64,000 nt of DNA from an uncultured delta proteobacterium (GTDB lineage Bacteria > Desulfobacterota > Binatia > Binatales > Binataceae), in contig CAVQEQ010000001.1 in NCBI GenBank assembly GCA_963711565.1, positions 704,001 to 768,000 on the forward strand, in the 5' to 3' direction. The position numbers and the translations under genes were made by a program. Each line of letters begins with the position of its first letter. Position 1 is the stretch's first letter. Of this stretch, positions 13,365-42,377 are shown one piece after another. Under the pieces are notes generated by a model that was given only the letters and a program-made list of their open reading frames with translations, did not search any database and was not told the DNA's origin.

Positions 13365-13426
13365 CGCTTCCGTAAGATTGTAATGCTAACGACGGCTATC
13401 GGAGAAAGGTCGTCGAAGTGGAAATG

Positions 13427-13653: not shown

Positions 13654-13668
13654 TGGCACGCGAGTTGC
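13654..13668 (+). promoter_or_regulatory. sigma54 promoter of the main EPS operon
   Basis: TGGCACGCGAGTTGC, perfect consensus. Confidence 0.85.
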
Positions 13669-13775
13669 CATTGGTAGTCCGAGCGCGCACGCAAATGCTG
13701 GCGCTGAATCAGTGGGCGGGTTTTGACCTATCGAGAGAGCCGATCTCGCTGGAATTCTTGAGGATGCGTGAGACC

Positions 13776-14564: not shown

Positions 14565-14596
14565 CTGATGAACCTTGGCTGGGAATCGATAAGAGT

Positions 14597-16114: not shown

Positions 16115-16119
16115 CGGCC

Positions 16120-18248: not shown

Positions 18249-18279
18249 TGACTTCATCCCAATCGACGAGGATAACCCG

Positions 18280-21187: not shown

Positions 21188-21197
21188 GTTGATTTCG

Positions 21198-22631
21198 ATG
21201 TTTGCCGACGAGTGCAGAAAACAGAAGTTGCTCTTCGCGATCGCCGATGTCTGTGCGCTGGTGCTCGCCGTTGCGGGCGCATTGACCCTGCACGACCCGG
21301 ACGGCGCCATCCTGGCGCATCTCGAAAGCATCGATCCGATGCGGCTGGCCGAAGGCGGCGTCCTGGCGGCGCTACTGTGGGTCGGCGTCTTCCGAACTTT
21401 CGATCTGTTCACCATGCGCAACGGCAGCCGCAAGGAAATGATCGCGATCGTCAAGGCGTGCTCGGCCGCGGCCGGCCTGATGCTGCTCGCCAGCTACGCG
21501 GCGCACGTTCAAATCTCGCGCGTTAGCGTCGCCAGCTTTTACGCCTTCAGCATCGTCGCCGAATTGGCGCTGCGCGGGGGCTTGCGCAATCTCATTCAGC
21601 AATTCTATTCGAGCCCGCGAATTTCGATCCCGCTCGTGATCATCGGCTTCAACCCCGTCGCTCGGCACCTTTGCGACAGCATTCAGGAAGAACTGACGCA
21701 GTATGAATTTCTCGGCTTCCTTGACGCTGATTCCGTCGGCCACGAGTACCGCGGCTATCCGGTGCTCGGACACCCCGATCTGTTGCCGGGCCTCATTCGC
21801 GTTCATCCGTGCCTCGAGGCTGCCATCGCCATCCCTGACGCCCCGCTCGCCGATCAGGCGCGCATGGTCGAGCTATGCGAAAAATCGCGGCTGCATTGGT
21901 GGGTCGTGCCGTGGGTCTATCGATCCGCGCCGACCGGTCTCCGCGTCGACACCGTCGGTCTGATTCCGCTGGTCGGGCGCCGCGGCTCGAACGTCGAGGG
22001 CCTGAACTACCTGGTGAAGCGCACCTTCAACGTCGTATGCGCCTCGCTCATTTTGGTTTTTGCCGCGCCTGTGATCGCATTCGCCGCTCTCGCGATTTTA
22101 ATTCTCGACGGCAGACCGATCTTCTTCCGGCAGGATCGAATCGGCGTACAAGGCCGGCGATTTGAAATGTTGAAACTGCGCACGATGAAAACCTGCGCCG
22201 CCGACCTCGTCCATCGCCAATACGTGCGGCGTTGGATCTCCAACGGTCACAGTGCCGGCGCCAACGGCAACGGCGCCAAGGTCTTCAAGCTCTGCAACGA
22301 TTCGCGCGTCACCGGCGTCGGCAGAATTCTGCGCCGCTTCAGCATCGATGAACTGCCCCAGATCCTCAACGTGGTGCGCGGCGACATGAGCCTCATCGGC
22401 CCGCGTCCCGCCCTGCCCTACGAGCTCGAGCACTATCAGGACTGGCATCGCCGCCGCCTTGAAGGGATGCCGGGAATCACCGGTTTGTGGCAGGTCAGCG
22501 GACGCAACCGGGTTTCATTCGACGAGATGGTCAAGCTCAACGTCCAGTACCTCGAAGATTGGTCGCTGAGCACCGACATCGGAATTCTTTTTCGCACCAT
22601 CCCGGTTCTGCTTCGCGGAGAAGGACGGTGA
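21198..22631 (+). CDS. Priming phosphoglycosyl transferase (WcaJ/GumD family)
   Basis: KLRTM, D.RVT.VG..LR..S.DELPQ..NV..GDMS.IGPRP, PGITG.WQV.GR. Confidence 0.95.
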   Translation: MFADECRKQKLLFAIADVCALVLAVAGALTLHDPDGAILAHLESIDPMRLAEGGVLAALLWVGVFRTFDLFTMRNGSRKEMIAIVKACSAAAGLMLLASYAAHVQISRVSVASFYAFSIVAELALRGGLRNLIQQFYSSPRISIPLVIIGFNPVARHLCDSIQEELTQYEFLGFLDADSVGHEYRGYPVLGHPDLLPGLIRVHPCLEAAIAIPDAPLADQARMVELCEKSRLHWWVVPWVYRSAPTGLRVDTVGLIPLVGRRGSNVEGLNYLVKRTFNVVCASLILVFAAPVIAFAALAILILDGRPIFFRQDRIGVQGRRFEMLKLRTMKTCAADLVHRQYVRRWISNGHSAGANGNGAKVFKLCNDSRVTGVGRILRRFSIDELPQILNVVRGDMSLIGPRPALPYELEHYQDWHRRRLEGMPGITGLWQVSGRNRVSFDEMVKLNVQYLEDWSLSTDIGILFRTIPVLLRGEGR

Positions 22632-24148
22632 ACGATCGCGTGCCTGTGACCGGCGATAGTCGCGAGCACGCCGAGCGCAACCGCTGGTTGTGGAATGCGT
22701 TCGCGCGCTCGGTTCGCGACAATATGGTCGCGGAGTTCGTCGTGCAGGCGCTGCGAGTCGGCGGGATGGTCGTGCTCGCGCGCGCGCTTTCGCCGCATGA
22801 TTTCGGCCTGTTCAAGGTTCTCGTCGTCGTCTCGACCTTCGCGATGCTGATCAACGAGGCCGGCATACCCGACGCGCTGATTCAGCGCCGCGATCTGAGC
22901 CCCGCGCATCATTCGACCGCGTTGTGGATGAGCCTCGCGCTCGCGCTGCTGACCTGCGGCCTGCTCTACGGCGGCGCGCCCGCGCTTGCGCATCTCATGA
23001 AGATGCCGGAACTGCGCCAGGGCATGCGCCTGCTCTGCATTCCTTTTCTTCTGGAGGGCGCTGCAGTCACGGCGAACGCGCGGCTGCGTCGCGACCTGCG
23101 CTTCACTGCGCTCGCGGCCGCCGACGTACTCGCCGAGTTCGCGTTTCTTGGCGTCGCGCTCGTGTTGCTCTGGGATCGGTTACCGGCATGGAGCCTGGCC
23201 GGCGGTCTCGCCGCGCGCTTTGCCGTTCACGCGATTACCGTCCTGTTTGCCGGCGGCAGAACACCGCTTGGACTTCCGACTGCCGCCGCTGCGCGCGACT
23301 TGGGCCGGTTTGCGACCAAGGTTCTCGGCGGACGAACCGTCGATGCGCTCTCGTCCAACGTGGATTTCCTGCTTATCGGCCGGCTGCTCGGGAGTTCAGC
23401 GCTGGGCTTTTATTCGATGGCGTGGGACCTGCTCCGATTCGTCCCGGACCGCGTCTTCCGAATCGCGGGCCGCGTCACGCTCCCGACTTTTTGCCATTTG
23501 CAGGATCAGACCGATCAGCTCGCGCGCGCGTACCTGAATTTCTGCAGCTATCTCTCGCGGATCATTTTGCCGATCGTTCTTTGTGCCGCGATCGCCGCTC
23601 CTGAACTGATCACGATCATCTACGGCCCCAAATGGCGCCCCGCCGCGGTGCCGATGCAATTGCTCGCGTGTGGACTGCTGCTGGTCGGGCTGCGTCTCGC
23701 TATCGGCTCCGTCTATTATGCAAAAAATCATCCCGAGTTCGACTTCTACGTTCATAGCACCCGCCTCGTGCTCGTCGTCGTAACCATTTTCGGCCTCGCG
23801 CACACAGGCTTGATCGGCGTGAGCATGGGCAGAAGCGCGGTCGAGGTCGTCATGAGCATCGCGGGTCAGTGGCTGGCATGCCTGGTGCTCGGCATCGGAC
23901 TTACCGATCTCGTCGTGGCAATTTTGCCCGGCGCCGGACTGGCGCTGATGTGCGCACTTGCCGTCACTGCCGGGAAGATCACCGCGAGCGCACTCGGTAC
24001 GTCGGGAGTCGCGACTTTGCTGCTCATCATGATGCCGCCCGCGATCGTCTATTGCTGGCGCGAATCGTCAACCGCGATGCGAATGTTCGCGGACACGTTC
24101 GGCCGCGGCGAAGGTGCGCCGATCACCGTCGCCCAGGAGCTTCAATGA
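22628..24148 (+). CDS. wzx: Oligosaccharide flippase (Wzx/PST family)
   Basis: LARALSP.DFG, ALIQR, LGFYS.A, YG.KW. Confidence 0.9.
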   Translation: MNDRVPVTGDSREHAERNRWLWNAFARSVRDNMVAEFVVQALRVGGMVVLARALSPHDFGLFKVLVVVSTFAMLINEAGIPDALIQRRDLSPAHHSTALWMSLALALLTCGLLYGGAPALAHLMKMPELRQGMRLLCIPFLLEGAAVTANARLRRDLRFTALAAADVLAEFAFLGVALVLLWDRLPAWSLAGGLAARFAVHAITVLFAGGRTPLGLPTAAAARDLGRFATKVLGGRTVDALSSNVDFLLIGRLLGSSALGFYSMAWDLLRFVPDRVFRIAGRVTLPTFCHLQDQTDQLARAYLNFCSYLSRIILPIVLCAAIAAPELITIIYGPKWRPAAVPMQLLACGLLLVGLRLAIGSVYYAKNHPEFDFYVHSTRLVLVVVTIFGLAHTGLIGVSMGRSAVEVVMSIAGQWLACLVLGIGLTDLVVAILPGAGLALMCALAVTAGKITASALGTSGVATLLLIMMPPAIVYCWRESSTAMRMFADTFGRGEGAPITVAQELQ

Positions 24149-25203
24149 ATCAGACTGCAACGGTTCGCGAGATATCCGTCGAGCCTGAGTTGCGGATTCT
24201 GCCGCTCGATCGGGTCCGCGCCGCGTGGGAAGATCTCGCCGCCTCGCATCCCGCGGCGACTCTCTATCATCGCCGGCCGTGGCTCGAAGTTTTGCGGCGC
24301 GCCTTCGGCGTCGATCCCTCCGTCGCGATCATCGGCGAATACAAATCGACGCTTGCCGCCTGCCTCCTCGCACCGGGCGGCAATCCGCTTCGCCGCAGTC
24401 TCATCTCGCTGCCATTCTCCGATTTTTGCCCGCCCCTTGCGGTCGACGACTCCGCGCTCGATTCGTTGATGTCCGGCTTGTCGGGCCTTGCCGCGCAATC
24501 CAGGCTCGAGATTCGCGGCGTCGCCGCATCCGATCCGTGGCACGTCCTGGATCACTTCCAGCGCTGGACGCTCGATTTGTCGCGCCCCTTCCAGGCTATA
24601 GAGCGCGCTGCCGATCGCGAGGTGAGACGCCACCTCCGACGCGCCTGCACGGCTGGGGTCACGGTCGAGTGCTCGCGCAGCGTCAACGCGATCGAAACTT
24701 TCTTTCGGCTCCAGCTCGAAAGCCGGCGCCGTCTCGGAGTCCCGTCACAACCGCTTAACTTTTTCAGACTCGTGCACCAAGTATTCGCGAAACTGGATTC
24801 CATCGAGGTGTGGTTTGCATCGCACCTGGGCAAACCCATCGCCGCCGTTGTCGTCTTGCGCGACGGCGACGACTTGCACGCGAAATGGTCCGCGCGCGTC
24901 GCCGGCAGCCCTGACGGCGCCAGCCATTCGATCTTCATGTCTATCGTCGAGCAGCACGCTCAGCGCGCCTGCTCACTCGACTTCGGCCGTACCGACAGCC
25001 GCAACCGCGGTCTCTCGCGATTCAAGCGCGAGCTTGGCGCTGCGCCTGCCGAGATGCCCTATAGCTATTTTCCGCAGATGCCGAGCGTTACCAGCGCCGA
25101 AAATCTGACCGGTGTGTGGCGGACCGCTTCCCGCGCGTGGCGACATCTGCCTCTGCCGATCGCTCGAGTCCTCAGCGACGTGACCTACAGGTACCTCGCA
25201 TGA
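24145..25203 (+). CDS. GNAT/FemAB-like N-acyltransferase
   Basis: SLPFSD.C, LDFGRT...N.GL.RFK..LGA. Confidence 0.8.
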   Translation: MNQTATVREISVEPELRILPLDRVRAAWEDLAASHPAATLYHRRPWLEVLRRAFGVDPSVAIIGEYKSTLAACLLAPGGNPLRRSLISLPFSDFCPPLAVDDSALDSLMSGLSGLAAQSRLEIRGVAASDPWHVLDHFQRWTLDLSRPFQAIERAADREVRRHLRRACTAGVTVECSRSVNAIETFFRLQLESRRRLGVPSQPLNFFRLVHQVFAKLDSIEVWFASHLGKPIAAVVVLRDGDDLHAKWSARVAGSPDGASHSIFMSIVEQHAQRACSLDFGRTDSRNRGLSRFKRELGAAPAEMPYSYFPQMPSVTSAENLTGVWRTASRAWRHLPLPIARVLSDVTYRYLA

Positions 25204-26054
25204 CCAAGTACATCGCAATCACGCCGGCGCGGGACGAGGAAAAATTCCTGCCGCTGCTGATCGGCTCGATGGCGGCGCAGAATTTGAAGCCCGACCGTTG
25301 GATAATAATCGACGACGGTTCCGTTGACGCTACCGCCGCGATTCTCGACGAAGCCGCCCGCACCTATTCGTGGATCGAACCTCATCATCTGCCGCGTAAC
25401 CGTCCGCGCGCTCCCGGCGGCGAGTGTGTAACCAGCCAGTTCCTGCCGCACGCAGCTTGCCAGGAGTACGACTACGTCGTGAGGCTCGACGCGGACGTCA
25501 GCTTCGAAGACGGTTTCATCGATCTTCTGCTCGAGGAATTCGCGCGCGACCCGAAGCTCGGGATCGCCAGCCCAACCCTGTACGAGCCCAAGGGCGCGGA
25601 TTGGGTTGAAATTCGACAGCCCGAGTACCACACGCGCGGCCCGGCAAAGATGTACTCACTGGCGTGCTTCAACGCGATCGGTGAACTCGATTCCGATGTT
25701 GGATGGGACACGCTGGACGAAGCGCGCGCGATGATGCTCGGCTTTCGCACGCGCGCTTTCCGCCGTATCACCGCCCGGCATCTTCGCCCGCAGGGCGAGG
25801 CGTCGGGATGGAAGGCGCGGATGATGGCGGGGCTGGCGGCGTACAGAGTCGGTTATTCCCCGCTGTTCATGATCGCCCGCGCGGCGCGTCATACGTTTTC
25901 GACACCGTTCCCGTTTTCGGGCGCGTTGATGCTCGCCGGCTTTCTCAACGGTTACATTCGCGGCGAACCGCGCTGCGCAGAGCCCGAATTAGTACGATTC
26001 ATCCGCCGGCATCAGCACCGCAGGCTGTTCTTGCAGGAGTCGCTATGGCGCTGA
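25200..26054 (+). CDS. Glycosyltransferase family 2
   Basis: ITPARDE, IIDDGS.D, LDAD, GWDTLDE. Confidence 0.9.
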   Translation: MTKYIAITPARDEEKFLPLLIGSMAAQNLKPDRWIIIDDGSVDATAAILDEAARTYSWIEPHHLPRNRPRAPGGECVTSQFLPHAACQEYDYVVRLDADVSFEDGFIDLLLEEFARDPKLGIASPTLYEPKGADWVEIRQPEYHTRGPAKMYSLACFNAIGELDSDVGWDTLDEARAMMLGFRTRAFRRITARHLRPQGEASGWKARMMAGLAAYRVGYSPLFMIARAARHTFSTPFPFSGALMLAGFLNGYIRGEPRCAEPELVRFIRRHQHRRLFLQESLWR

Positions 26055-27268
26055 GCGCTGTAATCGAAGCCGATCGCGTATCCTCCGCGCTATGCGACCA
26101 GCCCCCTTCGGGCGCCGGTCACAACGACGCGTTTTCTTTTTGGAAACTTCCTCATGATTGGAAGTCCGCGCTCGAATCGACGATTGCCGAGTCCAAAGCC
26201 GTCGCCGAGTACTATTTGTTTGAAGAATACCTGGCGCGCGAAGATCGCCGGCCGCCCTCCAGGATGCAGGCTTACTACCGGATCAAAAATCTGATTCCCG
26301 CTGTCCTGCGGCATCGCCTCAACTCCGCGGCAGTCAGGATGCGCGGGCGGCGCGACTTCCCGCACTGGCCGTTTGAAACCGCACTCACTGACTATTGGCG
26401 GGATTGGATGCAGCTCAGCCTGCGCAGCGTGAACGCGACCGACGGCTGGCACATCGGATTTTGGCCCAACGGATTGAAATGCTGCATCGTGCTTACTCAC
26501 GACGTCGAGGGTCCGCTCGGGATGAGCCGGATGGAGCGGATGGCGGATCTCGAAGAACGTTACAATTTCCGATCGGCCTGGAATCTGCCGTTGTCCCAGT
26601 ACGAGATCGATTGGAAGCTGATCGATCGGCTCCGTCTGCGCGGCTTCGAATTCGGCGCGCATGGACTTTGTCACGACGGCCGTCTGTTCCGCAGCGAGAG
26701 CGACTTCAGCGCGCTGGCGCCGATCCTTCAGGAGCTCGCGCACTCCCATGGTCTAAGCGGCTTCCGCGCGCCTTCGACGCTGCGGCGCGCCGAATGGATC
26801 GGCAAACTCTCCTTCGACTTCGATTGCAGCTTCTCGGATTCGGATCCCTACGAGCCGCAACCGGGCGGGACCTGCAGCGTGTTTCCTTTTTTCCTCGCAA
26901 ACCTGGTCGAGCTGCCTTACACGATGCCGCAGGATCACACGCTGATTCATCTGCTGCGCCGGAGTCCCACACAGATTTGGGCGCCCAAGGCACGATGGAT
27001 CGAATCGCTCGGCGGGATGATTCTTACGCTCGTTCATCCCGATTATTGCGGGTCGGGGCGCAATCTCAAGGAATACGAAACTCTCCTCAAACAACTGAGC
27101 GAGTTTGAGTCCGCGTGGCGCGCGCTGCCTTCTGAGGTTTCCTCGTGGTGGCGTCGCCGGGATCAAATGAAGCTGACCGTCAACGGCGACGGCACGCCGT
27201 CGATCGAAGGACCCGGATCCGAGCGCGCGGTTGCGCGGATGCTCTCGAGCGAGCCGTTGGCGCGTTGA
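26045..27268 (+). CDS. Polysaccharide deacetylase-like protein
   Basis: LTHDVE, FGAHG..HDG, GFRAP, L.HPDY. Confidence 0.8.
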   Translation: MALSAVIEADRVSSALCDQPPSGAGHNDAFSFWKLPHDWKSALESTIAESKAVAEYYLFEEYLAREDRRPPSRMQAYYRIKNLIPAVLRHRLNSAAVRMRGRRDFPHWPFETALTDYWRDWMQLSLRSVNATDGWHIGFWPNGLKCCIVLTHDVEGPLGMSRMERMADLEERYNFRSAWNLPLSQYEIDWKLIDRLRLRGFEFGAHGLCHDGRLFRSESDFSALAPILQELAHSHGLSGFRAPSTLRRAEWIGKLSFDFDCSFSDSDPYEPQPGGTCSVFPFFLANLVELPYTMPQDHTLIHLLRRSPTQIWAPKARWIESLGGMILTLVHPDYCGSGRNLKEYETLLKQLSEFESAWRALPSEVSSWWRRRDQMKLTVNGDGTPSIEGPGSERAVARMLSSEPLAR

Positions 27269-27278
27269 GGTGAATGCT

Positions 27279-28484
27279 GTGGCGCGTTTTTTGATGATTG
27301 CCTACACGACCTACATGCACGACGGCCGGGTCAAGCGGCATGCCGAGGCGTTGGCCGAGCGCGGCGATCATGTTGACGTGATTTGCCTCGCCACCGACGA
27401 GCAGCCAATCACGAACGGCGTCAACGTGATCGGCCTGCCGATGCCGCGCTATCGTGGCGAGAGTAAATCCGCGTATCTCAGGAGCTACACCCGGTTCTTT
27501 GCTATGGCGGCGCGGCGCGCAGCGCGGATGTCGATGAAGCTGCGCTACAACGTCGTGATCGTCTGCACGATGCCCGACGCGGTCATCGTCTGCGCGATTC
27601 TGCCCAAGCTCCTCGGCAGCAAAGTCGTGCTCGACGTGCACGACACAATGCCGGAACTGTACCGCGACAAGTTTGGCGGTGCGCGCGGCGCGGCCGGCGC
27701 GAAATTGCTGATGCTCGAGGAGCGAGTCAGCTCGTGGTGGGCGGATCGCGTCCTCGCCGTGCACGATCTCCATCGCGACCGCCTGCAACAGGCCGGCGTG
27801 CCCGCCGACAAGATCCATGTCGTGATGAATTCGCCGGACACGCGAATCTTCGACCGGCACAAAAACGGCGACTCGCCGCCCAATCAGTTCACCTTGATTT
27901 GTCACGGCACCGTGACTCAGCGGCTCGGCCTCGACCTCGCCATCTCCGCGGTCGCGGCGCTGCGTTCGGAAATCCCCGAGTTGCGGCTCGAGGTTATTGG
28001 CGAGGGCGATCGGCTTGCGGAATCGCGCGCGCTCGTCGATCGATTGGGACTCGGCAACCAGGTCTCTTTCATGGACCTTGTGCCGGTGGAAAAACTCCCG
28101 CCGCTGCTGGTCAAGGCGGACGTCGGACTGGTTCCATACCGGCCGAGCTCCGCGACGCATCTGATGTTGCCGGTGAAGCTGCTCGACTACGCGACGCTCA
28201 GCATCCCGGTGATCGCCGCGCGCCTGCGAACCGTCGAATACTACTTCGGCGACGGCGCGGTTGAATTGTTCGAACCCGGCGACGTCGCCGACCTGGCGCG
28301 TGCGATCAGGCTGCTCTACAACAATCCGGATTTGCGCGCGCGGCTGGTGGAGCGATCGCGCCACGCACTGGACGCGCTGAACTGGCAAACCCAGAGAAGC
28401 GAATACTACCGAGCAATCGACTCGTTGGTTGCGGAGAGATTGTCACAGGAGAATTTCGATGGACGTGAAAGAACGCCCGAATGA
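27279..28484 (+). CDS. Glycosyltransferase family 4
   Basis: D.RV...AE.L, LDVHD.MPE, P.KLLDY. Confidence 0.9.
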   Translation: MARFLMIAYTTYMHDGRVKRHAEALAERGDHVDVICLATDEQPITNGVNVIGLPMPRYRGESKSAYLRSYTRFFAMAARRAARMSMKLRYNVVIVCTMPDAVIVCAILPKLLGSKVVLDVHDTMPELYRDKFGGARGAAGAKLLMLEERVSSWWADRVLAVHDLHRDRLQQAGVPADKIHVVMNSPDTRIFDRHKNGDSPPNQFTLICHGTVTQRLGLDLAISAVAALRSEIPELRLEVIGEGDRLAESRALVDRLGLGNQVSFMDLVPVEKLPPLLVKADVGLVPYRPSSATHLMLPVKLLDYATLSIPVIAARLRTVEYYFGDGAVELFEPGDVADLARAIRLLYNNPDLRARLVERSRHALDALNWQTQRSEYYRAIDSLVAERLSQENFDGRERTPE

Positions 28485-29244
28485 CAAGCCGTCCCTACGG
28501 ACCCTCGTGGTCGGACTCGGCGAGGTCGGCGCGGCGCTGGCGGCAATCCTGGACCGCACGGAACCTGTGCTCCGCCACGACCTCGATCGCGTGAAGATTT
28601 CCGAACCAATCGGGACGATGCACCTGTGCGTCCCGTTTCAGTCGCGCCATCAGTTCGAAACCGTCGCGCTCGGATACATAGAACGCTTCCAGCCGTCGCT
28701 GACCATCATCAACAGCACGGTGTTGCCCGGAACCACCCGCTCCATCGCGCAGAAGAGCGGGAGCGCGGTCGCGTACAGCCCGGTTCGGGGCAAGCACGTC
28801 CGCATGCAGCGAGACCTGATGCGATATCGCAAGTATGTCGCCGCACCCGATCCTGAGGCCGCCGCCGGCGCCGAAGAACATTTTCGGGCGGCCGGCATGG
28901 AGACTCAGCGGATGACCGAAGTCGAGTCGCTCGAGCTCGCGAAACTCGCCGAGACCACTTACTTCGGCGTCTGCATTGCTTTCGCGCAGGAAATCAATCG
29001 GTATGCCGAGTGCGTCGGCGCGGACTATTCGGAGACGATCGGGTTTTTCGACGAAGTCGATTTCCTGCCGCGCCAGCGTTACTTCCCCGGCTTCATCGGC
29101 GGCCATTGCGTGATCCCCAACATCAAACTGCTCCTCGAGCTCGCGCCATCGGCGGCGCTGGAAGCAATCCTGGATTCCAATGAACGACGTGCACATGAAC
29201 TTGAATCGCGACCCGGCGCCACTTCCGCGACCCTCTCCGAGTGA
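28459..29244 (+). CDS. Short UDP-glucose/GDP-mannose dehydrogenase family protein
   Basis: VVGLGEVG, INSTVLPGTT, ELAKL.ET, IGGHC; no C-terminal UDP-binding domain. Confidence 0.8.
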   Translation: MDVKERPNDKPSLRTLVVGLGEVGAALAAILDRTEPVLRHDLDRVKISEPIGTMHLCVPFQSRHQFETVALGYIERFQPSLTIINSTVLPGTTRSIAQKSGSAVAYSPVRGKHVRMQRDLMRYRKYVAAPDPEAAAGAEEHFRAAGMETQRMTEVESLELAKLAETTYFGVCIAFAQEINRYAECVGADYSETIGFFDEVDFLPRQRYFPGFIGGHCVIPNIKLLLELAPSAALEAILDSNERRAHELESRPGATSATLSE

Positions 29245-30616
29245 CGCGAGCCCGACCAGGCCAAGATGCCGGCTGATCGGTAACAGCCCGGAGTTCCCGC
29301 TCGCCGCCGGACGAGTCGCGCGCCTGCGCGGTCTTGGCGTTGAGCTCTGCCTCCCGGATTGCGCCGCGCTCCCTTCCGGGTTTGCGGCGCGCAATCAGCT
29401 GATCGCGGTCAACTTCGACCTGTTGTCGCGTCTCGACCCCGCCACGAAAACCCGTCTGCGCCAAGCCGCCGAAAGCGGCGCGACGATCTATATGCGAGGT
29501 GGTCTGGAGCACGGCCGCGTGTATTCATTGCGGCCGTTCTCGGATCAGCGATTCGAATTCTCAATCAAGCCCGCCGACGGTTATCAATTCTCTACTCATC
29601 CGATTCTTCCCGCGGCAATCGCGGGTGAACGAGTCGCCGGCCGCCTGGACATGCCGCATGCAGCCGGTCTGGAAGATCCGGCCCGCCCGATATTATCGAG
29701 CGTAGATCGTTTCGGACCCGCCAGGCCGTCGATTTTTGCGATTGAAATTGGCGCCGGTATCGCGATTTTCGATCTTCACGCCGACCACGAGGTCGAAGAC
29801 CTGGAGTTGCTGGCAGATCTCGCGGCGCCATCGAGACGAGCTGCCACCGTTGGGGCGCTTGCGGCAGTTGATCGGGCAGCCGGCCGCAACGTGGCGATTC
29901 AGCCGGCGGTCAATCTGGTGATCGACGATCGTCCCGTCAACTACGACTACTTCAACGCCGGCAAGCTCGACGGGTTCCTGCGACATCTCGAGGCTCAATG
30001 TCCGGGCATCCACACCGACTTCGCCTGGACGCCGATCCACACGCGTCCGCATCGCCGTTATCTCGAAGTGCTGAGCCGATACAACACGGGCTTTGTGTGG
30101 CACGGATTCCTTCGCCACATCGACCATCGCACCATCACGGATTTCGAATCCCACCTGAGCGCTGGCCGTGCATGCGTTAACGAGATCTCGCGCGAGTATG
30201 GCGTTCGCATTCAACCGGTGATGATTTTTCCCTTCGAGAAGGACACGGCGCGCGCCGAGGAACTCCTGCGCCGTGCAGGGTTCGTCGCCAAGGTGCAGTC
30301 GGCCGGCGGCTTTCCCCCGCCGGCTTACTACCGTCTGCGTGACGTCGCGGAGGAGCCGCCGCTCGATGATTCGTTCAGCGTGGTTTTTCGCGAGTCAATC
30401 GACCTGCTGAGCCGCGATCGAATGCTCGCGATGGCGACATTGGGAATGCCCATCATCGCGCTGGCCCATCCGCGCGATCTCGCACTGCGCCGGTTTTGCG
30501 GGCGCGATCGCGCCGCGATGTCGTACTTCGATTCTGTTCTCCGATTCGCAGCTGACAAGTCGCTGAGACCGAAATCGCTTGAGTCGATCGCGGCGGAAGT
30601 TCCCACTGCCCGCTAA
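29180..30616 (+). CDS. Hypothetical protein (possible deacetylase-like barrel), last gene of the EPS operon
   Basis: Long ORF; LVIDD.P, VWHG..H.DH and ALAHP motifs. Confidence 0.6.
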   Translation: MNDVHMNLNRDPAPLPRPSPSDASPTRPRCRLIGNSPEFPLAAGRVARLRGLGVELCLPDCAALPSGFAARNQLIAVNFDLLSRLDPATKTRLRQAAESGATIYMRGGLEHGRVYSLRPFSDQRFEFSIKPADGYQFSTHPILPAAIAGERVAGRLDMPHAAGLEDPARPILSSVDRFGPARPSIFAIEIGAGIAIFDLHADHEVEDLELLADLAAPSRRAATVGALAAVDRAAGRNVAIQPAVNLVIDDRPVNYDYFNAGKLDGFLRHLEAQCPGIHTDFAWTPIHTRPHRRYLEVLSRYNTGFVWHGFLRHIDHRTITDFESHLSAGRACVNEISREYGVRIQPVMIFPFEKDTARAEELLRRAGFVAKVQSAGGFPPPAYYRLRDVAEEPPLDDSFSVVFRESIDLLSRDRMLAMATLGMPIIALAHPRDLALRRFCGRDRAAMSYFDSVLRFAADKSLRPKSLESIAAEVPTAR

Positions 30617-30626
30617 TCTCGGTTAA

Positions 30627-32057
30627 TCAGTTATCGTGATTGCGCGAGGGTTCGGTCGCCGAATCGCGATCCTTCCCCTGGTAGCGGACCAAGCGGTTGT
30701 AAAGAGTCTTCAGGCTGATCCCCAGCATCTGCGCGGCGCGCACTTTGTTGCCGTTGGTAAAATCCAACGTCTTGAAGATCAACTCGCGCTCGATCTCGTC
30801 CATCGTTTCGCCGATGCGCAATTCGAAATGCGGGCCCTTGCGGCCTGCGCGCCGGATGTCGTTGGGAAGATCCGGGGGCGCGAGCAGTGGCCGGCGCGCA
30901 ACGATCGTGGCGCGCTCGATTACGTTTCGCAGTTGCAGGACATTTCCGGGCCATCGATTCGCCCGCAGGATTTCCAGGCACTCGTTGTCGATTCCGGTGA
31001 CGGGTTTCCGGTGCGAGTCCGCCGACTGCTTGATAAACGCTTCGACCAGCGCGGGAATATCTTCGATTCGGTCGCGCAGCGGCGGCAGCTCGATAGTGAG
31101 CGAGTTGAGACGAGAATATAAATCCTCGCGCAACCGACCGTGATGCGTCGCCTCGGCCGGGCTCCGACTGGAGGCGGCGATCAAGCGAACGTCCAGCGGT
31201 ATTTCGGTTTCGCTGCTGCCACCCATCCGGCGGATCCTTTTGTCCTCGAGCGTTCGCAGCAGCCTGGCCTGAAGTTCGATCCCCAGCTCGGCAATTTCGT
31301 TGAGCAACAGCGTGCCGCCGGCGGTCATCGCGAGGAATCCCTCGCGGCGGCTATCGGCGCCGGCAAACGCGTTACGTTCATGGCCCCAAAGTTCGCTCTC
31401 CATGAGGTTGTTGGGCACTGCGGCGCATGTGACTTCGGCGTAGGGACCGCCGCGGCGCGTGGACAACTGATGAATCGTGCGCGCCGCGAGTTTCTTGCCG
31501 GTTCCGCTTTCGCCGAGAATCAACGCCGGGATGGAGCTGTCCGCCGCTTCCTCAATCAGCCTCATCACGCCGCGCATCGCAGGCGAGTTGCCGATGATCG
31601 GTCCAAGCGTACCGGTCTCGATCAACTTTCGGCGCAGGCGCTGGTTCTCTTCGGCGACGCTGAGTTGGGTCGCCAGGTTAGTGAGCACCACGCTTAGATG
31701 ACTCGAATTGATCGGTTTCAAAAGAAAATCGTAAGCTTCAGACTTAATTGAGCGGATCGCGGCGCCGAAGTCCGCCTCTTGGGCCATAACAATTGCCGGG
31801 ATATCAAATCCCTGCGCGTGCAGCTCGCGCAAATATTCGGCAGCGCTTTTCTCTTGTCCTCCAAAATCGATCAGCAGCACATCCGGCTCAAAGGTCTGGA
31901 CCTGCTTGAGCACCTCGATTCCTTCGACGGCCCGGACCTGGAAGCCCCACGAACTCATTCGTTCGCGCAAAGTCTCGCGGGTGGAGCGGTCGCTCTCTGC
32001 GATGAGAATCCGCAAATCGTGCTTGGTGTCTGCCGCGCTGCAAAACTTGGAGGACAT
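30627..32057 (-). CDS. NtrC-family response regulator (REC-AAA-HTH) with degenerate catalytic motifs
   Basis: GESGTGK, REDLYSRLN, WPGNV.QL.N, Fis-type HTH; GAFTGA reads NAFAGA and Walker B reads LLLNE. Confidence 0.9.
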   Translation of the reverse strand: MSSKFCSAADTKHDLRILIAESDRSTRETLRERMSSWGFQVRAVEGIEVLKQVQTFEPDVLLIDFGGQEKSAAEYLRELHAQGFDIPAIVMAQEADFGAAIRSIKSEAYDFLLKPINSSHLSVVLTNLATQLSVAEENQRLRRKLIETGTLGPIIGNSPAMRGVMRLIEEAADSSIPALILGESGTGKKLAARTIHQLSTRRGGPYAEVTCAAVPNNLMESELWGHERNAFAGADSRREGFLAMTAGGTLLLNEIAELGIELQARLLRTLEDKRIRRMGGSSETEIPLDVRLIAASSRSPAEATHHGRLREDLYSRLNSLTIELPPLRDRIEDIPALVEAFIKQSADSHRKPVTGIDNECLEILRANRWPGNVLQLRNVIERATIVARRPLLAPPDLPNDIRRAGRKGPHFELRIGETMDEIERELIFKTLDFTNGNKVRAAQMLGISLKTLYNRLVRYQGKDRDSATEPSRNHDN

Positions 32058-32149
32058 TGGCTGTAGGTTGCCGGTGTAGCGACTAGCGGGCAGCGGTGTA
32101 AATTCGACAAGCCCGCTTCCATCGCGCGTCTGATCCATGTCCCAAAAAA

Positions 32150-32164
32150 GCAACGAGTGTGCCA
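32150..32164 (-). promoter_or_regulatory. sigma54 promoter of the NtrC-like gene
   Basis: TGGCACACTCGTTGC. Confidence 0.8.
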
Positions 32165-32335
32165 CGACATCGCTAGCTGACCAGAGGAAAACCCAATATC
32201 ACTGCGGTCCTTTCCAGCCGGTTTTTGGCACCCAGAAGCGAGGCCGTCGGTAGAAAATACCCGGTTGCCGGGCTTAGCCAGACGCACAATCAACAAGCAG
32301 GCCTTTATTCATTTGTTTTTTCAGCGCTGACCTAA

Positions 32336-32350
32336 GGGCACAGCGATTGC
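32336..32350 (+). promoter_or_regulatory. sigma54 promoter
   Basis: GGGCACAGCGATTGC upstream of 32479. Confidence 0.7.
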
Positions 32351-32478
32351 TGTTAACCTCTCCGATACCTCGGAGGGTGCGCCACTGGCCGCGATTACCT
32401 AACCCTTCTTTTCCTCCTTCCTGCCCGTGGCCATGACGCAACCCTTCGATTTTCAAGAGCAAGCATAGGAGGTCATCT

Positions 32479-32880
32479 ATGAAAATTGTCACCATCATAG
32501 CTTTAGCTGCCTGCACCGGAGTCGCACTGGGCTTTATGTCGAGTTGCGCAGACGATCGTACGGTCGAGACGACAACCACCCGTGAAGTCGACACCACAGC
32601 GCCGCCCGCGATAGTAACTGCCGCGCCAGTCGTAACCGAGCCAGCAGTCGTAGTGCCTCCAAACGCGAGCACAACGTCTACTACGACTCAGTTCAATAAT
32701 GGCACGGTCGAGAAGAAGACGGTGACCGAATATAATCCTGCTTATCCTGAGGTAGTTCCGTCTGCGCCCGTGGTGGTAACTACGGCTCCGCCGGCTCAAT
32801 CCACTACAACTCAAACGACAACTACTAATGATGATGGAGACCTGGACCGCCGAACCACTACGACGGTCGTGACTCCGTAG
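32479..32880 (+). CDS. Thr/Val/Pro-rich lipoprotein
   Basis: AGGAGG RBS; lipobox-like MSSC; low-complexity body. Confidence 0.8.
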   Translation: MKIVTIIALAACTGVALGFMSSCADDRTVETTTTREVDTTAPPAIVTAAPVVTEPAVVVPPNASTTSTTTQFNNGTVEKKTVTEYNPAYPEVVPSAPVVVTTAPPAQSTTTQTTTTNDDGDLDRRTTTTVVTP

Positions 32881-32985: not shown

Positions 32986-33147
32986 TCAAAGGATTGCTCT
33001 TCCGGCAATCAGCGACACCACAAACAACACCAGGAATACGAAGAACAGAACCCGCGCAAACTCCGTGGCTGTTCCTGCGATGCCGCCGAATCCTAACGCC
33101 GCGGCAATCACAGCTATCACGAGAAAAACGAGTGCGTAGTATAGCAT
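32986..33147 (-). CDS. DUF1328 (UPF0391/YtjA) small membrane protein
   Basis: Missing from the ORF track. [53 protein letters not shown]; GGAGG RBS. Confidence 0.9.
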
Positions 33148-33184
33148 TACTCAATGTCCTCCAAGGTTGATGCTGAGTTATTCA

Positions 33185-33199
33185 GCAACGACTATGCCA
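33185..33199 (-). promoter_or_regulatory. sigma54 promoter for the DUF1328 gene
   Basis: TGGCATAGTCGTTGC. Confidence 0.8.
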
Positions 33200-33246
33200 C
33201 TGCTAACGCTCCTGAATATGACAGAGCAGGCTACTCCGCAGACGAA

Positions 33247-33609
33247 CTATGCAATATTTACCGTCGTAGCAGCTGTCAGCGATCGCCTTAACACTTCGGC
33301 TGCGACTATCGCACCTACACCTACGAGTCCCAGCACCTGCCAGTACGGCATCCATCGATGAAGCAACAGCACCAGGCTCGCTAGCAGTGCCACTATGCCG
33401 CCCGCGGCGAGCACGATTAACGTTGATGTGAGGTAGACCTGGCCGAGGAGGGTCGTCGCCGCACCGACGACATTCGACTCGAGCAGACGGGCCTCGGCGG
33501 CGACGATCCGGGCGAAGTCCGAGAGAATCCGAACTGCCAGCTCCGGCAATTCGTCCTGCGACTCCCGCTCGATTGTCAGGTCAGACTCGTTCGACTTGAT
33601 CGTGCTCAT
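33247..33609 (-). CDS. YqjE/holin-like membrane protein
   Basis: LPEL...I..D...I..AE.RL followed by two TMs; operon context. Confidence 0.6.
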   Translation of the reverse strand: MSTIKSNESDLTIERESQDELPELAVRILSDFARIVAAEARLLESNVVGAATTLLGQVYLTSTLIVLAAGGIVALLASLVLLLHRWMPYWQVLGLVGVGAIVAAEVLRRSLTAATTVNIA

Positions 33610-33916
33610 CGACTTTGGCTTCATTCGAAAGCACCAGGGCGGCGCCCAACAGCAACAGCGCTATCATTGCGGCCTCACCCGAGTCCGATCCCAACGCAAA
33701 TCCCAAAGCGCCGGCGACGCACGCCGTAGTGACAGGACGCTTGCGGATTCCGCGGTCCGGGCGGAGCCGAGCGACACCCTCTTCGACGCGGTCGCCAACC
33801 TGATGCATCGCGTCGCGGAGATCCTCCTGGACGCGATCGCCGACCTGATGCAACGCGTCGCGGAGATCCTTGGTGGCGTCTTCCAGTTCATCTTTTGTTT
33901 CGGGGGTGTCTGCCAT
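33581..33916 (-). CDS. Small tail-anchored stress protein with a 15-aa tandem repeat
   Basis: DLRDA(L/M)HQVGDRV(Q/E)E twice; IRKRP....VAGALGF tail. Confidence 0.65.
   Translation of the reverse strand: MADTPETKDELEDATKDLRDALHQVGDRVQEDLRDAMHQVGDRVEEGVARLRPDRGIRKRPVTTACVAGALGFALGSDSGEAAMIALLLLGAALVLSNEAKVDEHDQVERV
33785..33870. repeat. 45-bp in-frame direct repeat (2 copies)
   Basis: gacgcg.tcgcc.acctgatgca..gcgtcgcggagatcct occurs twice. Confidence 0.8.
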
Positions 33917-34121
33917 TTTTGCCTTTCTTCGAGGTCAGTACCGATGTCAGTCGGTCCCCCAACACGCCCTCGAGCACCATGAGAATGATTTGAAACGATG
34001 TGCGGTTGCTGAGTCCTCCGCCAATAGCGAAGCCGCCGAGCACGGCGAGCGCCAGCGACCGCTCGGGATACTTGGAAATCTTCTCACGCAAGTCGGCGAG
34101 GTCAGACTGTTGCTGCGGCAT
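33888..34121 (-). CDS. Small membrane protein (YqjD/ElaB-like tail)
   Basis: I.KYP.RSLALA.LGGF.IG. Confidence 0.6.
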   Translation of the reverse strand: MPQQQSDLADLREKISKYPERSLALAVLGGFAIGGGLSNRTSFQIILMVLEGVLGDRLTSVLTSKKGKNGRHPRNKR

Positions 34122-34126
34122 GATCG

Positions 34127-34336
34127 TTAGCGCCGGGTCACGTGATTGAGGATCCGCGCGGCGATGTAGCCAACCGTGAAGGCGCTGGCAATGGCAATCA
34201 GCGGCTCATCGCGAACGAAGTCCATCAGGGCCGAGTTAACCGACGAAATGTATTCCGTTCCCATCTCGGCAAAATCACTTATTTTTTCGCGCCCCTCGTC
34301 GATCAGACCGTCAACATCTATTTTCGCGGTGCTCAT
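34127..34336 (-). CDS. YqjD/ElaB (DUF883)-like tail-anchored protein
   Basis: DFVRDEPLIAIASAFTVGY. Confidence 0.7.
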   Translation of the reverse strand: MSTAKIDVDGLIDEGREKISDFAEMGTEYISSVNSALMDFVRDEPLIAIASAFTVGYIAARILNHVTRR

Positions 34337-34412: not shown

Positions 34413-34642
34413 CCAACTACCGATGATTTGAAATGGTGCAGGTCTTTTTCTCCGGTGATATCGGTCAAAGTTACAGATTCAAGTCGCGCCGCATCCAGTC
34501 CCTTCAGTTTCTGAAGTTGTGCCGAGCTGCGATACCGGCATTGGAAGAATATTTCCGAGTCGCAATTACAGAGTTCTCGGTTTCTACTGGCCATCGCGCC
34601 AAATAATCCGCATGTAACCGGCAAAAGTCTCTTAGCGCTCGA

Positions 34643-34657
34643 TGGCATAAGGATTGC
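34643..34657 (+). promoter_or_regulatory. sigma54 promoter for the SEC-C microprotein
   Basis: TGGCATAAGGATTGC. Confidence 0.8.
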
Positions 34658-34695
34658 TGGTTACCAGTCAATGCATCTGCGCTTGGAGGTTCACT

Positions 34696-34782
34696 ATGGC
34701 GAATAGACCAGACCCGAATTCTCCCTGCCCATGCGGTTCCGGCAAGCTTTTCCGGCACTGCTGCGGAAAAAGCAGCAAATAA
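34696..34782 (+). CDS. Stand-alone SEC-C zinc-binding microprotein (28 aa)
   Basis: Missing from the ORF track. MANRPDPNSPCPCGSGKLFRHCCGKSSK; GGAGG RBS. Confidence 0.8.
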   Translation: MANRPDPNSPCPCGSGKLFRHCCGKSSK

Positions 34783-34902
34783 AACCTTCCCCCCTCCGGC
34801 AGGGTCGGAAGCCGTGGCGTCCTCCCCCCGCTAGCGGCTTTCAGGTCCTGCCGGACCTTCTTTAAGTCTGTTGGATTGTTTGATTGGCCAGGAGCGGAGT
34901 CT

Positions 34903-35109
34903 ATGCCCACCAAGAAATCGAGCGGCAGGAAGTATTCGAAAAAAGCCGGCAAAATGGTTGAGCGCGAAATCCATGCAATGAAGCGCGGAAAGCTCAAATC
35001 CGGCCGCTCCGGCAAGAAGGTCAGGAGCCGCAAGCAGGCGATCGCGATTGGCCTCTCCGAAGCTCGGCGCGCTGGCGCAAAGGTTCCACGCGCGAAGTCG
35101 TCGTCCTAG
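34903..35109 (+). CDS. DUF6496-like small basic protein
   Basis: MKRGKLKSGRSGKKV.SRKQAIAIGLSEARRAG. Confidence 0.85.
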   Translation: MPTKKSSGRKYSKKAGKMVEREIHAMKRGKLKSGRSGKKVRSRKQAIAIGLSEARRAGAKVPRAKSSS

Positions 35110-35276
35110 CAGTTCGCTCCCCACTCGTTCCGCGACGAGTCGGCATATAGTCTCGCGGCTCGCCCGAACCGCGTGCACAGCGGTTTCGCGAACTCAGTAA
35201 GAACTCCCGCCTGAAAAGTGGATGTCCCCTTGCGACGATCAGTGATTCGGAGCGGTTTAATCACTGCTCTGCCGAT

Positions 35277-35291
35277 TGGCGCGCTTCCTGC
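35277..35291 (+). promoter_or_regulatory. sigma54 promoter
   Basis: TGGCGCGCTTCCTGC. Confidence 0.7.
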
Positions 35292-35357
35292 TCATTGAGT
35301 CGTTATCGCTTCATCCTACGACGCGATTTAACGGACACAGACAAGGAGTAGTCGAAG

Positions 35358-35438
35358 ATGCGTTATGCGATAGCCTGGCTTCTTGGAGTTCCTGCCTCGA
35401 TTATTGTGATTTGGTTTGTGCTTGGACATTTGCTTTAG
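35358..35438 (+). CDS. 26-aa single-TM micropeptide
   Basis: MRYAIAWLLGVPASIIVIWFVLGHLL; AAGGAG RBS. Confidence 0.7.
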   Translation: MRYAIAWLLGVPASIIVIWFVLGHLL

Positions 35439-35501
35439 ACAACCGAATCATCAACCAAGGCCCACTTCTTCTCCAATGCACTTAAATACGAGAGGACCGA
35501 C

Positions 35502-35654
35502 ATGAACCTCATACTCTTAATCGTACTAGTTGTTCTCTTACTCGGCGCACTACCCACATGGCCCTATAGCGCTGAATGGGGTTACTATCCCAGCGGCGCG
35601 CTGGGGACTGTTTTAATCATAGTCTTGGTCCTGGCACTGCTGGGACGAGTGTGA
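35502..35654 (+). CDS. DUF3309 family small membrane protein
   Basis: Missing from the ORF track. LLLGALPTWPYSAEWGYYPSG.LG. Confidence 0.9.
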   Translation: MNLILLIVLVVLLLGALPTWPYSAEWGYYPSGALGTVLIIVLVLALLGRV

Positions 35655-35930: not shown

Positions 35931-36153
35931 GGTAACGTCCTCCACTCTCTTGATTCTGCCTTTGGGCTAATCGAGCAAAGCCTGAGCCATCGGACACATC
36001 ATGGTCGTAATGCACAGTTCTGTGCCGTTTATGGCCTCCATTGCTATCTGTTCATCGCCCCGCCGATGAAGGACTTTCTCGGCCACCCGGCAATCTGAAA
36101 ATACTTCACACACGAGCCGCGAAAATCACCCGAGTTGCTCACTATTCGGCGGT

Positions 36154-36168
36154 GGGTATGGCGATTGC
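36154..36168 (+). promoter_or_regulatory. sigma54 promoter
   Basis: GGGTATGGCGATTGC upstream of the BON gene. Confidence 0.6.
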
Positions 36169-36197
36169 TCTGTTACCTCTGCAGGAGGGACGAGACC

Positions 36198-36491
36198 ATG
36201 AAATTCGCAACAAAAGCGGCTTTATCGACGGCGCTGATAGCCGGCCTCGCAATTGTCGGCCCGGCGCTCTCCTCGAATCGTACGACTTTCAATCAATCAC
36301 CGTCTGCTGCAACAGAAGGTCACATGGTAAGGGCAAGCATCATCAAGGTGCATACCGACCATGGCGTAATTATTCTGCCCGGCACTGCCGACTCGTGGGA
36401 CGCGGTTGAGAACGCGGTGTTCGTCGCCGACAGCATCGCTGATTTTCAGATGGTCAACAACGAAGTTCCCTGGCAGATAGACTATGAATGA
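36198..36491 (+). CDS. BON domain protein
   Basis: Signal peptide; I.V.T.HGV..L.G...S....A...A......V.N. Confidence 0.7.
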   Translation: MKFATKAALSTALIAGLAIVGPALSSNRTTFNQSPSAATEGHMVRASIIKVHTDHGVIILPGTADSWDAVENAVFVADSIADFQMVNNEVPWQIDYE

Positions 36492-41835: not shown

Positions 41836-42047
41836 CTGTCCACGCGAGTCTCGCTGCCAAAGCATCGACATTGCTGGTGCCGCCCCCGAAGCTCGCGGAT
41901 TGAAGTGGATCCGCACGCACCCTGACTGCTTGCAGGAACCTGTCGGCGTCTCCGGGCACTCTTTTGAAATTACTACACGTTCGGAATCGTGAAGAAATTC
42001 CTCGCACAATTGGCGAAAACACCTTGCAGATCAGGGGTTTATGTTCG

Positions 42048-42062
42048 TGGCTCCATACTTGC
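42048..42062 (+). promoter_or_regulatory. sigma54 promoter for csbD-BON
   Basis: TGGCTCCATACTTGC. Confidence 0.75.
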
Positions 42063-42119
42063 TGATTAGTTGAGAGTCACCGCGCTAGCTCGGTGAAAAC
42101 CCAATCAGGAGTTCTTCAA

Positions 42120-42317
42120 ATGAATAGCGACCAGATGAAAGGCAAGTTCAAACAGCTCTCAGGCGAGATCAAGCGAAAGTGGGGACAGATCACCGACGAC
42201 GATCTGAAGCAGGCACAGGGCAGCATGGAAAAGCTGGTCGGGAAAATCCAGGAGCGCTCGGGCGATCAGCGCCAGGCGATCGAGGATTGGCTCAGATCGC
42301 AGGGGCTGAACGAGTAA
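42120..42317 (+). CDS. csbD: CsbD/YjbJ family general stress protein
   Basis: MNSDQMKGKFKQLSGEIKRKWGQITDDDL. Confidence 0.92.
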   Translation: MNSDQMKGKFKQLSGEIKRKWGQITDDDLKQAQGSMEKLVGKIQERSGDQRQAIEDWLRSQGLNE

Positions 42318-42377
42318 CGATCCGAAAACGCGGGACGCTTTGCGCATTTTTGGGTTAGAAAAACCAGAGGCGATTTT

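Follow-up and report, generated by a model that had tools for sequence, protein, structure and literature searches.

Group 1 bacterial enhancer-binding proteins (bEBPs) of the NtrC family, such as NtrC1, ZraR and AtoC, have one domain order, fold, P-loop, R-hand and type of helix-turn-helix (HTH) in common. The same features are found in the protein discussed here, which is encoded next to an exopolysaccharide (EPS) cluster in a 64,000-nucleotide stretch (contig CAVQEQ010000001.1, positions 704,001 to 768,000; hereafter the window) of an uncultured member of the Binataceae, from a group of soil bacteria. Unlike the group 1 proteins, it lacks the Thr of the sigma54-contacting loop, the sensor I Asn, the sensor II Arg, the Walker A Glu and the Ser/Thr of the receiver, and we refer to it as the pseudo-activator.

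Natural loss of the sigma54-contact motif is known from atypical bEBPs (VpsR, NtrX, TyrR, HupR, PhhR, HsfA, DhaR, and NtrC of Caulobacter), and a defective GAFTGA motif is the one feature that the pseudo-activator has in common with VpsR, NtrX, TyrR and NtrC of Caulobacter. Some atypical bEBPs also have non-consensus Walker motifs and NtrX is a repressor (PMC6158489). These proteins act at sigma70 promoters and several have deletions in the loop, whereas the pseudo-activator has point changes only. In contrast to them, it sits in a sigma54 regulon together with a live paralog that has a near-identical HTH; the promoters neighboring it are of the sigma54 type, although its own targets may differ from its neighbors.

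Paralogous bEBPs also occur in pairs (HrpR/HrpS, FleQ/FleT, RedR1/RedR2, VnfA1/VnfA3), the second member often being transcribed from a promoter fired by the first. As in such hetero-oligomeric pairs, a paralog is present in the same genomes (paralog A, in 14/14 carriers of the pseudo-activator). However, the described pairs mainly co-activate (PMC10084136; PMC9542535), whereas the partner here is predicted to be non-productive, and the loop Thr that HrpRS needs in both subunits is missing from the dead protein. Negative control of a bEBP by another protein, as we propose, is also exerted by the anti-activators PspA, HrpV, NifL and FleN. These are not bEBP homologs and are not known to bind the enhancer, whereas the pseudo-activator is a disabled bEBP with a DNA-binding domain.

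In gene content, the surroundings of the pseudo-activator are similar to the general stress regulons of RpoS, SigB and EcfG, with Pfam/NCBIfam matches to CsbD, BON, YflT-like, DUF1328, Ku and PfpI, which we take to be stress functions. Unlike in those regulons, the promoters of this island are of the sigma54 type and have an upstream palindrome in common. The literature covered (open-licence PMC and bioRxiv articles) did not describe the clade, a general stress regulon with this set of genes under sigma54, or feedback inhibition by a dead bEBP.

Motif losses, selection and origin of the pseudo-activator

The gene and its functional elements are located as follows.

30627..32057, reverse strand: pseudo-activator gene, likely 476 aa from ATG 32057; the longest open reading frame (ORF) begins at GTG 32165
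31668..32012, reverse strand: degenerate receiver domain, residues 16-130; Asp64 and Lys114 present, Ser/Thr92 replaced by Ala, acidic pair and Pro68 eroded
31491..31496, reverse strand: Walker A; Lys188 retained, the next residue changed from Glu to Lys189
31356..31388, reverse strand: ESELW Trp224 through loop 1 NAFAGA (229-234); sigma54-contacting Thr gone, Phe retained, no deletion
31296..31301, reverse strand: Walker B Asn253-Glu254; the Asp to Asn change is private to the species group of the window
31167..31169, reverse strand: sensor I, Asn changed to Ser297
31110..31130, reverse strand: R-hand RxDxxxR (R310, D312, R316) retained; Tyr315 changed to Ser
30936..30938, reverse strand: sensor II, Arg changed to Leu374
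30681..30752, reverse strand: Fis-type HTH, the most constrained part (ratio of nonsynonymous to synonymous substitution, dN/dS, 0.048)

The ORF (30627-32165, reverse strand) is unbroken, as the initial annotation had stated, and has the domain order receiver (REC)-AAA+-HTH with a Fis-type HTH. The start assigned there did not hold up: GTG 32165 falls within a sigma54 -24/-12 site (32149-32165) with a predicted +1 around 32138, and homologs measure ~474-477 aa, so that ATG 32057 is the likely start; residues are numbered from it. Named homologs are from Candidatus Binatus and Binataceae, and the protein scores under every NCBIfam equivalog cut-off shown. The REC-AAA+-HTH fold of group 1 bEBPs is predicted to be intact: the AlphaFold model has a pLDDT of 77.5, its AAA+ core lies within 1.6-1.9 A root mean square deviation of NtrC1 chains, and the best PDB matches are 4l4u, 1ojl and 1ny5.

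Four departures from the bEBP consensus that had been read from the sequence are real: GKE to GKK (K189), VNC to VTC (T210), GAFTGA to NAFAGA (229-234) and Walker B DE to NE (N253). Overlooked at that stage were losses found throughout the clade, namely the sensor I Asn (S297), the sensor II Arg (L374), YYRL to YSRL (S315) and ESELF to ESELW (W224). The genome of the window encodes rpoN, and its other bEBP-like ORFs (16/16) retain the loop Phe-Thr and the Walker B DE.

Homologs were aligned from 120 listed hits of 1258, supplemented with related loci; once duplicates were removed, 81 sequences were degenerate and 64 live, the latter being 43 close canonical relatives (lineage B) and 21 copies of the canonical paralog A. 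None of the 81 clade members has the loop Thr, the sensor I Asn, the sensor II Arg or Tyr315, all of which are found in 64/64 live relatives. The position of the loop Thr is occupied by Ala in 58, Pro in 22 and Glu in one of the 81, with the loop Phe retained in 78, and that of the sensor II Arg by Leu (69), Met (7) or Gln (5). The residue after the Walker A Lys is Lys in 79 and Arg in two of 81, as against Glu in 64/64 live relatives; as the degenerate group was chosen by Lys/Arg189 and Trp224, the clade counts for these two residues hold by construction. The switch Asn remains in 8/81. By contrast, Walker B retains Asp or Glu in 76/81 (Asp 55, Glu 21, Ala 3, Asn 2) and the catalytic Glu in 79/81; the initial annotation had counted the Walker B change among the four departures, but Asn in just 2/81 members makes it, like G229N (3/81), nearly private, and we rejected it as the lesion of the family. 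The R-hand residues, described initially as retained, are indeed kept (79/81, 80/81 and 75/81 for R, D and R), as is the tightly conserved HTH.

The receiver had been considered intact on account of its Asp. This residue is present in the pseudo-activator, but Ser/Thr92 is replaced by Ala and the acidic pair and Pro68 are eroded, so that the set of a phosphorylatable receiver (acidic pair, Asp, Ser/Thr, Lys) is incomplete. Among 79 clade receivers, Ser/Thr is found at position 92 in two, Asp64 in 53 and the Lys in 78. Taken as a whole, the protein has a loop with Phe and no Thr/Ser (NAFAGA), retains only Lys188 and Glu254 of the cis ATPase residues, and has a full trans R-hand RxDxxxR.

No forms intermediate between canonical and degenerate proteins were seen in the homolog alignment. 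When 149 diverse bEBP representatives were scored for four comparable losses, 122 showed none and a single one showed all four, which argues against ordinary drift. New residues have become fixed in the clade (K189, W224, L242/T269 and a basic linker at 402-409). Phe242 and Val269, both replaced (by Leu and Thr), correspond to a coupled pair in NtrC1 (PMC9020082), and their joint change fits a loop region that is remodeled and not decayed.

For the biochemical consequences, residues were mapped by hand onto NtrC1 via the structural-hit alignment and onto PspF by a constant offset. A Thr to Ala change in loop 1 stops sigma54 engagement, and PspF rings alternating wild-type and T86A subunits are spoiled (PMC4132715); in HrpR/HrpS the same change in either subunit removes activation, and sensor II changes remove or reduce it (PMC3105312). 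Changes of the Walker A Glu or switch Asn alone would not be fatal, PspF E43 and N64S variants still supporting transcription, and the ATPase of trans-dead PspF subunits can be restored by complementation with cis-dead subunits (PMC3419264). With cis and trans residues listed from the PspF and HrpR/HrpS papers plus sensor I, the clade retains 2/7 cis active-site residues as against 5/5 trans residues (Fisher p 0.028), and the cis loss is above background (p 0.026). The pseudo-activator thus lacks the residues for sigma54 contact and is predicted to have lost ATP hydrolysis. The initial proposal of a conserved pseudo-activator under a sigma54 promoter of its own is in line with these data, as the key losses are common to the clade and such a promoter is present.

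The comparison of orthologs and of dN/dS that had been suggested as a check was carried out (Nei-Gojobori, 40 distinct genes, 737/780 pairs, median dS 0.87). Orthologs down to ~61-63% identity have the key losses and are under purifying selection, with a clade dN/dS of 0.20 overall, and we therefore rejected recent decay, the more so as the HTH stands at 0.05. By part, values are 0.375 for the receiver, 0.177 for the AAA+ core, 0.144 for the lid and 0.048 for the HTH region, against 0.113, 0.048, 0.105 and 0.088 in paralog A. Relative to A, the receiver and ATPase core are relaxed (3.7-fold for AAA+), whereas constraint on the DNA-binding end is stronger; likewise, the HTH and the basic linker that precedes it vary less in the clade than in live relatives. 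The ratio for lineage B, which spans genera and includes one mis-sorted A gene, was given no weight.

The degenerate clade is monophyletic (FastTree support 1.0 with 79 near-full-length sequences; SH-aLRT 100 with 18 representatives) on a long stem of 0.28. It nests in lineage B: support is 0.875 and 74 for B as a whole, and 1.0 and 100 for the group formed by the clade and its nearest live relatives. The degenerate form was seen only in the genus of the window (Ca. Binatus), in 14/43 genomes searched, with fragments in a fifteenth. Two genomes, G015 and G016, have live B and no dead form. In G015 a fully canonical copy occupies the same position (L109), convergent on the same EPS genes and with the same divergent sigma54 sites; in G016 a canonical copy lies behind a sigma54 site in a different setting (L110). 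In other genera lineage B is often followed by a histidine kinase gene, whereas no kinase gene follows the pseudo-activator, and in G073 and G153 lineage B flanks an EPS cluster. The clade thus derives from a canonical, EPS-linked activator, still intact at this locus in G015, that was first deprived of its kinase and later of its activity, whereas A remained. No live B copy was found beside a dead gene; searches of the carriers gave A-type but no live-B matches.

Sigma54 promoters, the shared palindrome and paralog A

The cluster that converges on the pseudo-activator and the stress island on its other side comprise the following elements.

8912..9018, forward strand: start of the EPS operon, with palindrome (-90) and sigma54 site
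9034..30616, forward strand: EPS biosynthesis and export cluster, convergent on the pseudo-activator
32149..32165, reverse strand: sigma54 -24/-12 site of the pseudo-activator, predicted +1 ~32138
32248..32262, no strand: palindromic upstream site, candidate enhancer, common to two divergent sigma54 promoters, at -97 and -87
32335..32351, forward strand: divergent sigma54 site
32479..32880, forward strand: conserved Thr/Pro-rich secreted or lipoprotein-like ORF, no Pfam match
32986..33263, reverse strand: DUF1328 gene, with sigma54 site 33184-33200 and upstream palindrome 33249-33263
33247..34336, reverse strand: small membrane-protein genes, YqjE-like (Pfam holin-X below cut-off); a YqjD-like label in this run is presumed, with no family hit
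34642..35654, forward strand: sigma54 site, DUF6496 (34903-35109) and DUF3309 (35502-35654)
36095..36491, forward strand: palindrome, sigma54-like site (36153) and small BON-like gene (below Pfam cut-off)
41964..42794, forward strand: palindrome, weaker sigma54-like site, CsbD (42120-42317) and BON (42378-42794)

The promoter assigned to the pseudo-activator in the initial annotation was recovered at 32149-32165. A sigma54 site lies within 1.3 kb upstream in 38/38 scorable loci (50 examined, 12 too short, some genomes counted twice). Most relatives have the order sigma54 site, BON, YflT-like, pseudo-activator, with the latter last in the run; in the window and a few others the BON and YflT-like genes are missing and the promoter is directly upstream. 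Genes for DUF1328, DUF6496, DUF3309, CsbD and BON make up an island, several with sigma54 sites of their own, and we take them to be general-stress genes.

The palindrome at 32248-32262 (score 13.0, block-shuffle p 0.003) is maintained in 22 aligned intergenic regions, the conserved element being GTA/GAA-N5-TAC/TTC at 32250-32260, and a single such palindrome stands midway between two divergent sigma54 sites ~170-250 bp apart. GTA-N5-TAC is the top spaced palindrome upstream of island promoters (49/100, against four in shuffles, a figure inflated by orthologous copies). In the genome of the window the palindrome matrix reaches at least 12 at 7/36 sigma54-like sites, a level attained by 0.27% of positions in a random set of 3000 and by 2.1% in an AT-rich set of 144; the high-scoring sites include those of the pseudo-activator, its divergent neighbor, DUF1328, the EPS operon, a sugar nucleotidyltransferase and a site ~390 bp before Ku. 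The TGT-N7-ACA sites named initially fared less well, as literal matches are not enriched in the window (7 against 5.7 expected), and the one in the leader at 32097-32109 was rejected because it has no conserved counterpart in relatives. Sigma70-like sites in 29000-36500 (5 against 3.0 +/- 1.8) and a terminator scan were both at chance level, and the second group-1-like sigma factor of the genome scores RpoH-like, not RpoS.

The EPS cluster has domain matches to Wzy_C, Poly_export, Bac_transf, glycosyltransferase and UDP-sugar dehydrogenase. Its (Wzy) promoter, which was outside the matrix training set, recurs in eight carrier genomes and beats block shuffles at 9/9 loci; a strict match at the operon start was not found in G015 or G073. 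A sigma70-type role of the regulator at this operon, one of the options first suggested, is argued against by the conserved sigma54 site and shared palindrome before the first gene. Within the cluster, the last ORF (29180-30616, 478 aa) is conserved without a Pfam match and stands beside the regulator in most relatives and in another genus, and an ExeA-like AAA ATPase with a LysM-like tail (16120-17448) is retained in relatives. Perfect TGT-N7-ACA palindromes at 11436-11448 and 13448-13460 occupy the spacers that precede a 523-aa ORF and the export gene, and neither has a convincing sigma54 site after it.

Further observations concern the flanks of the island. Strong palindromes at 2265, 3840 and 4338 and a weaker one at 2427 (window 2265-4352) lie near an M23-like peptidase ORF and DUF2383, and for two of these a sigma54-like site follows at a distance of 65-93 bp. 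The island also encodes, at 36547-43537, small receiver proteins and a pair of hybrid histidine kinases (CHASE3; MEDS-PAS); these recur at the loci of relatives and are possible inputs to paralog A. Just left of the window (L236), a PfpI/YhbO-family gene and a large hybrid kinase extend the island, together with an ORF labeled GlgE-like from sequence reading, with no family hit at the threshold used. Soil or rhizosphere metatranscriptome contigs (two sets) cover short pieces of the pseudo-activator, stress genes and EPS cluster; neither level nor strand nor start can be read from such contigs, DNA may be among them, and they were not used as evidence.

The initial annotation held that the true activator must lie elsewhere and might be a paralog with a similar HTH and an intact GAFTGA. 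Paralog A (G000:C1:127587-128951, in the genome of the window) answers this description: all its motifs are canonical, a histidine kinase gene adjoins it, BON genes are nearby, and its loop form GSFTGA is functional in FleR (PMC10696123). It is present in 14/14 carrier genomes, against 29/43 genomes of the genus (two of the 29 partial), and lies inside the island in L033, L068-L071, L079, L084, L111 and L117. Paralog A is therefore the likely activator of the island. The presence of the palindrome tracks that of A. In genomes with A only, it occurs at 2/30 sites examined in G007 and beside A in G017, G003 and G006, the last two having belonged to the palindrome training set. At a score of 10 it was found at 0/30 sigma54-like sites of G073, which has B only (30 of 37 sites examined), and at 0/19 of G041, which has neither A nor B. 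The recognition helix of the dead protein is identical to that of lineage B, and to that of A at five of seven positions plus one Arg/Lys swap.

Other relatives of these proteins were observed as well. In G015 and G016 (L111, L112) paralog A is itself preceded by a sigma54 site that has a strong palindrome (score 14), which suggests that A is positively autoregulated where B is still live. Two receiver-less bEBPs in the genome of the window (G000:C4:55878-56858 and C2:40630-41610), each among integrase-like or foreign-looking genes, are 49-53% identical to the pseudo-activator and have intact motifs. Separate losses of the loop Thr, the sensor I Asn, the sensor II Arg and the receiver Asp have occurred in two distant bEBPs with a similar recognition helix, P0224 and P0164 (39% and 35% identity), with the Walker A Glu changed to Arg in P0224; the two are possible convergent pseudo-activators.

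A proposed brake on paralog A and its alternatives

We favor, at slightly better than even confidence and from sequence comparison, a reading in which the pseudo-activator is an induced, signal-blind brake that occupies the sites of A and possibly spoils its rings. Kinase-activated paralog A would fire the palindrome-bearing sigma54 promoters, and the pseudo-activator would accumulate as one product of this regulon. Deaf to phosphorylation, it would bind the same palindromes as A and, having a P-loop and R-hand, may join the rings of A as a subunit unable to grip sigma54. Transcription of the regulon, including its own gene, would then drop, resulting in delayed negative feedback. The fuller claim, a natural dominant-negative pseudo-ATPase derived from a sister activator as a signal-blind dummy with a dismantled active site of its own and a preserved face toward the neighboring subunit, which is induced by A, is carried to the same enhancers, enters the rings of A and shuts down a sigma54-run general stress and capsule program, is tentative.

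Several observations weigh against the brake. The retention of 5/5 trans residues does not exceed background (p 0.18), 71% of the sites conserved in live relatives being retained overall, and Tyr315, which by spacing equals FlrC Y290, called trans-acting in a PDB title, is lost although it is probably trans-acting. A conserved operator just downstream of the promoter was found in 0/39 relatives (score at least 9), with weak look-alikes near +40 in a few. The recognition helix differs from that of A at two positions (Leu/Ala 449, Arg/Lys 455), and as the B-only genome G073 has no palindrome scoring at least 10 at its 30 sigma54-like sites, the B-type HTH may prefer others. In addition, 13/29 A-bearing genomes matched neither the dead gene nor live B, and G006 has the island without the pseudo-activator (L117); the brake is therefore dispensable. 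The genomes are related, so that co-occurrence with A is not an independent test. Finally, characterized GAFTGA-deficient proteins all act at sigma70 promoters, in the parts of the literature covered.

This last point leads to a rather unlikely alternative, in which the protein is a sigma54-independent regulator like VpsR, NtrX or TyrR, induced by the sigma54 program but activating or repressing a separate set of sigma70-family promoters, where the dead AAA+ domain would serve to sense a ligand or to dimerize. Characterized atypical bEBPs behave in this way (PMC6158489; PMC12421884; PMC3162934), and the retained P-loop, the newly fixed residues (K189, W224, L242/T269, linker 402-409) and the two HTH differences from A are consistent with it. 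However, the EPS operon, which would be the obvious target, is preceded by a sigma54 promoter that is conserved in the window and eight relatives, the number of sigma70-like sites in 29000-36500 is at chance level, loop 1 retains its full length and its Phe, unlike the deletions of TyrR, DhaR and VpsR, and the HTH has not diverged from that of a sigma54-activating ancestor. With regard to ligand control such as by c-di-GMP, a crude look at the pseudo-activator for a FleQ-type motif found no LFR. Less probable still is a role as helper of the RedR1, FleT or VnfA3 kind, with no activity of its own, which A would induce and which would strengthen or retarget A in mixed rings by contributing DNA binding and trans-acting arginines. 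RedR1 is inactive alone and transcribed from an operon activated by RedR2 (PMC10084136), VnfA3 offers a parallel (PMC9542535), the complementation of trans-dead by cis-dead PspF subunits for ATPase (PMC3419264) agrees with such a role, and the R-hand is retained; yet a loop Thr to Ala change in HrpR or HrpS, or in alternating PspF subunits, abolishes activation, and genomes with A only keep palindrome-bearing sigma54 promoters without the pseudo-activator.

We give little credence to a Fis-like architectural factor that bends DNA at divergent promoters and biases direction without shutting down the regulon: the single palindrome midway between divergent sigma54 sites and the high conservation of HTH and basic linker would suit it, but selection extends over the whole AAA+ fold (dN/dS 0.14-0.18), which bending does not need. 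That the protein is a still-working sigma54 activator with compensated motifs is very improbable. The PspF E43 and N64S variants, the retention of Walker B Asp/Glu (76/81) and catalytic Glu (79/81) and the predicted fold would allow for it, whereas the Thr, sensor I Asn and sensor II Arg are jointly lost in 81/81, the AAA+ dN/dS is 3.7 times that of A, and the receiver cannot relay normally. A decaying pseudogene, finally, we regard as hardly credible. Four copies are split (L064, L082/L132, L083, L084) and the G006 island lacks the gene; however, adjoining genes are split too in L082/L132 and L083, which points to assembly indels, a dN/dS of 0.20 at a median dS of 0.87 is not that of a pseudogene, and the same losses were fixed on one stem branch.

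Implications for sigma54 regulation

Known GAFTGA-deficient bEBPs have left sigma54 for sigma70, and known paralog pairs mostly co-activate. If the brake is real, a disabled activator serving as feedback within a sigma54 regulon would be a natural version of the laboratory mutants in which a Thr-less subunit spoils the ring, and would add a pseudo-enzyme to the bacterial AAA+ proteins. Together with the live ortholog that sister genomes have at this locus, it forms a before-and-after pair for the proposed switch from activator to inhibitor. Every database name seen for clade proteins (NtrC-family or sigma54-dependent regulator) conceals the loss. If the dominant-negative mechanism holds, such dummies would be a recurrent, undescribed way of timing sigma54 responses, as P0224 and P0164, of the same HTH subfamily, apparently arose independently.

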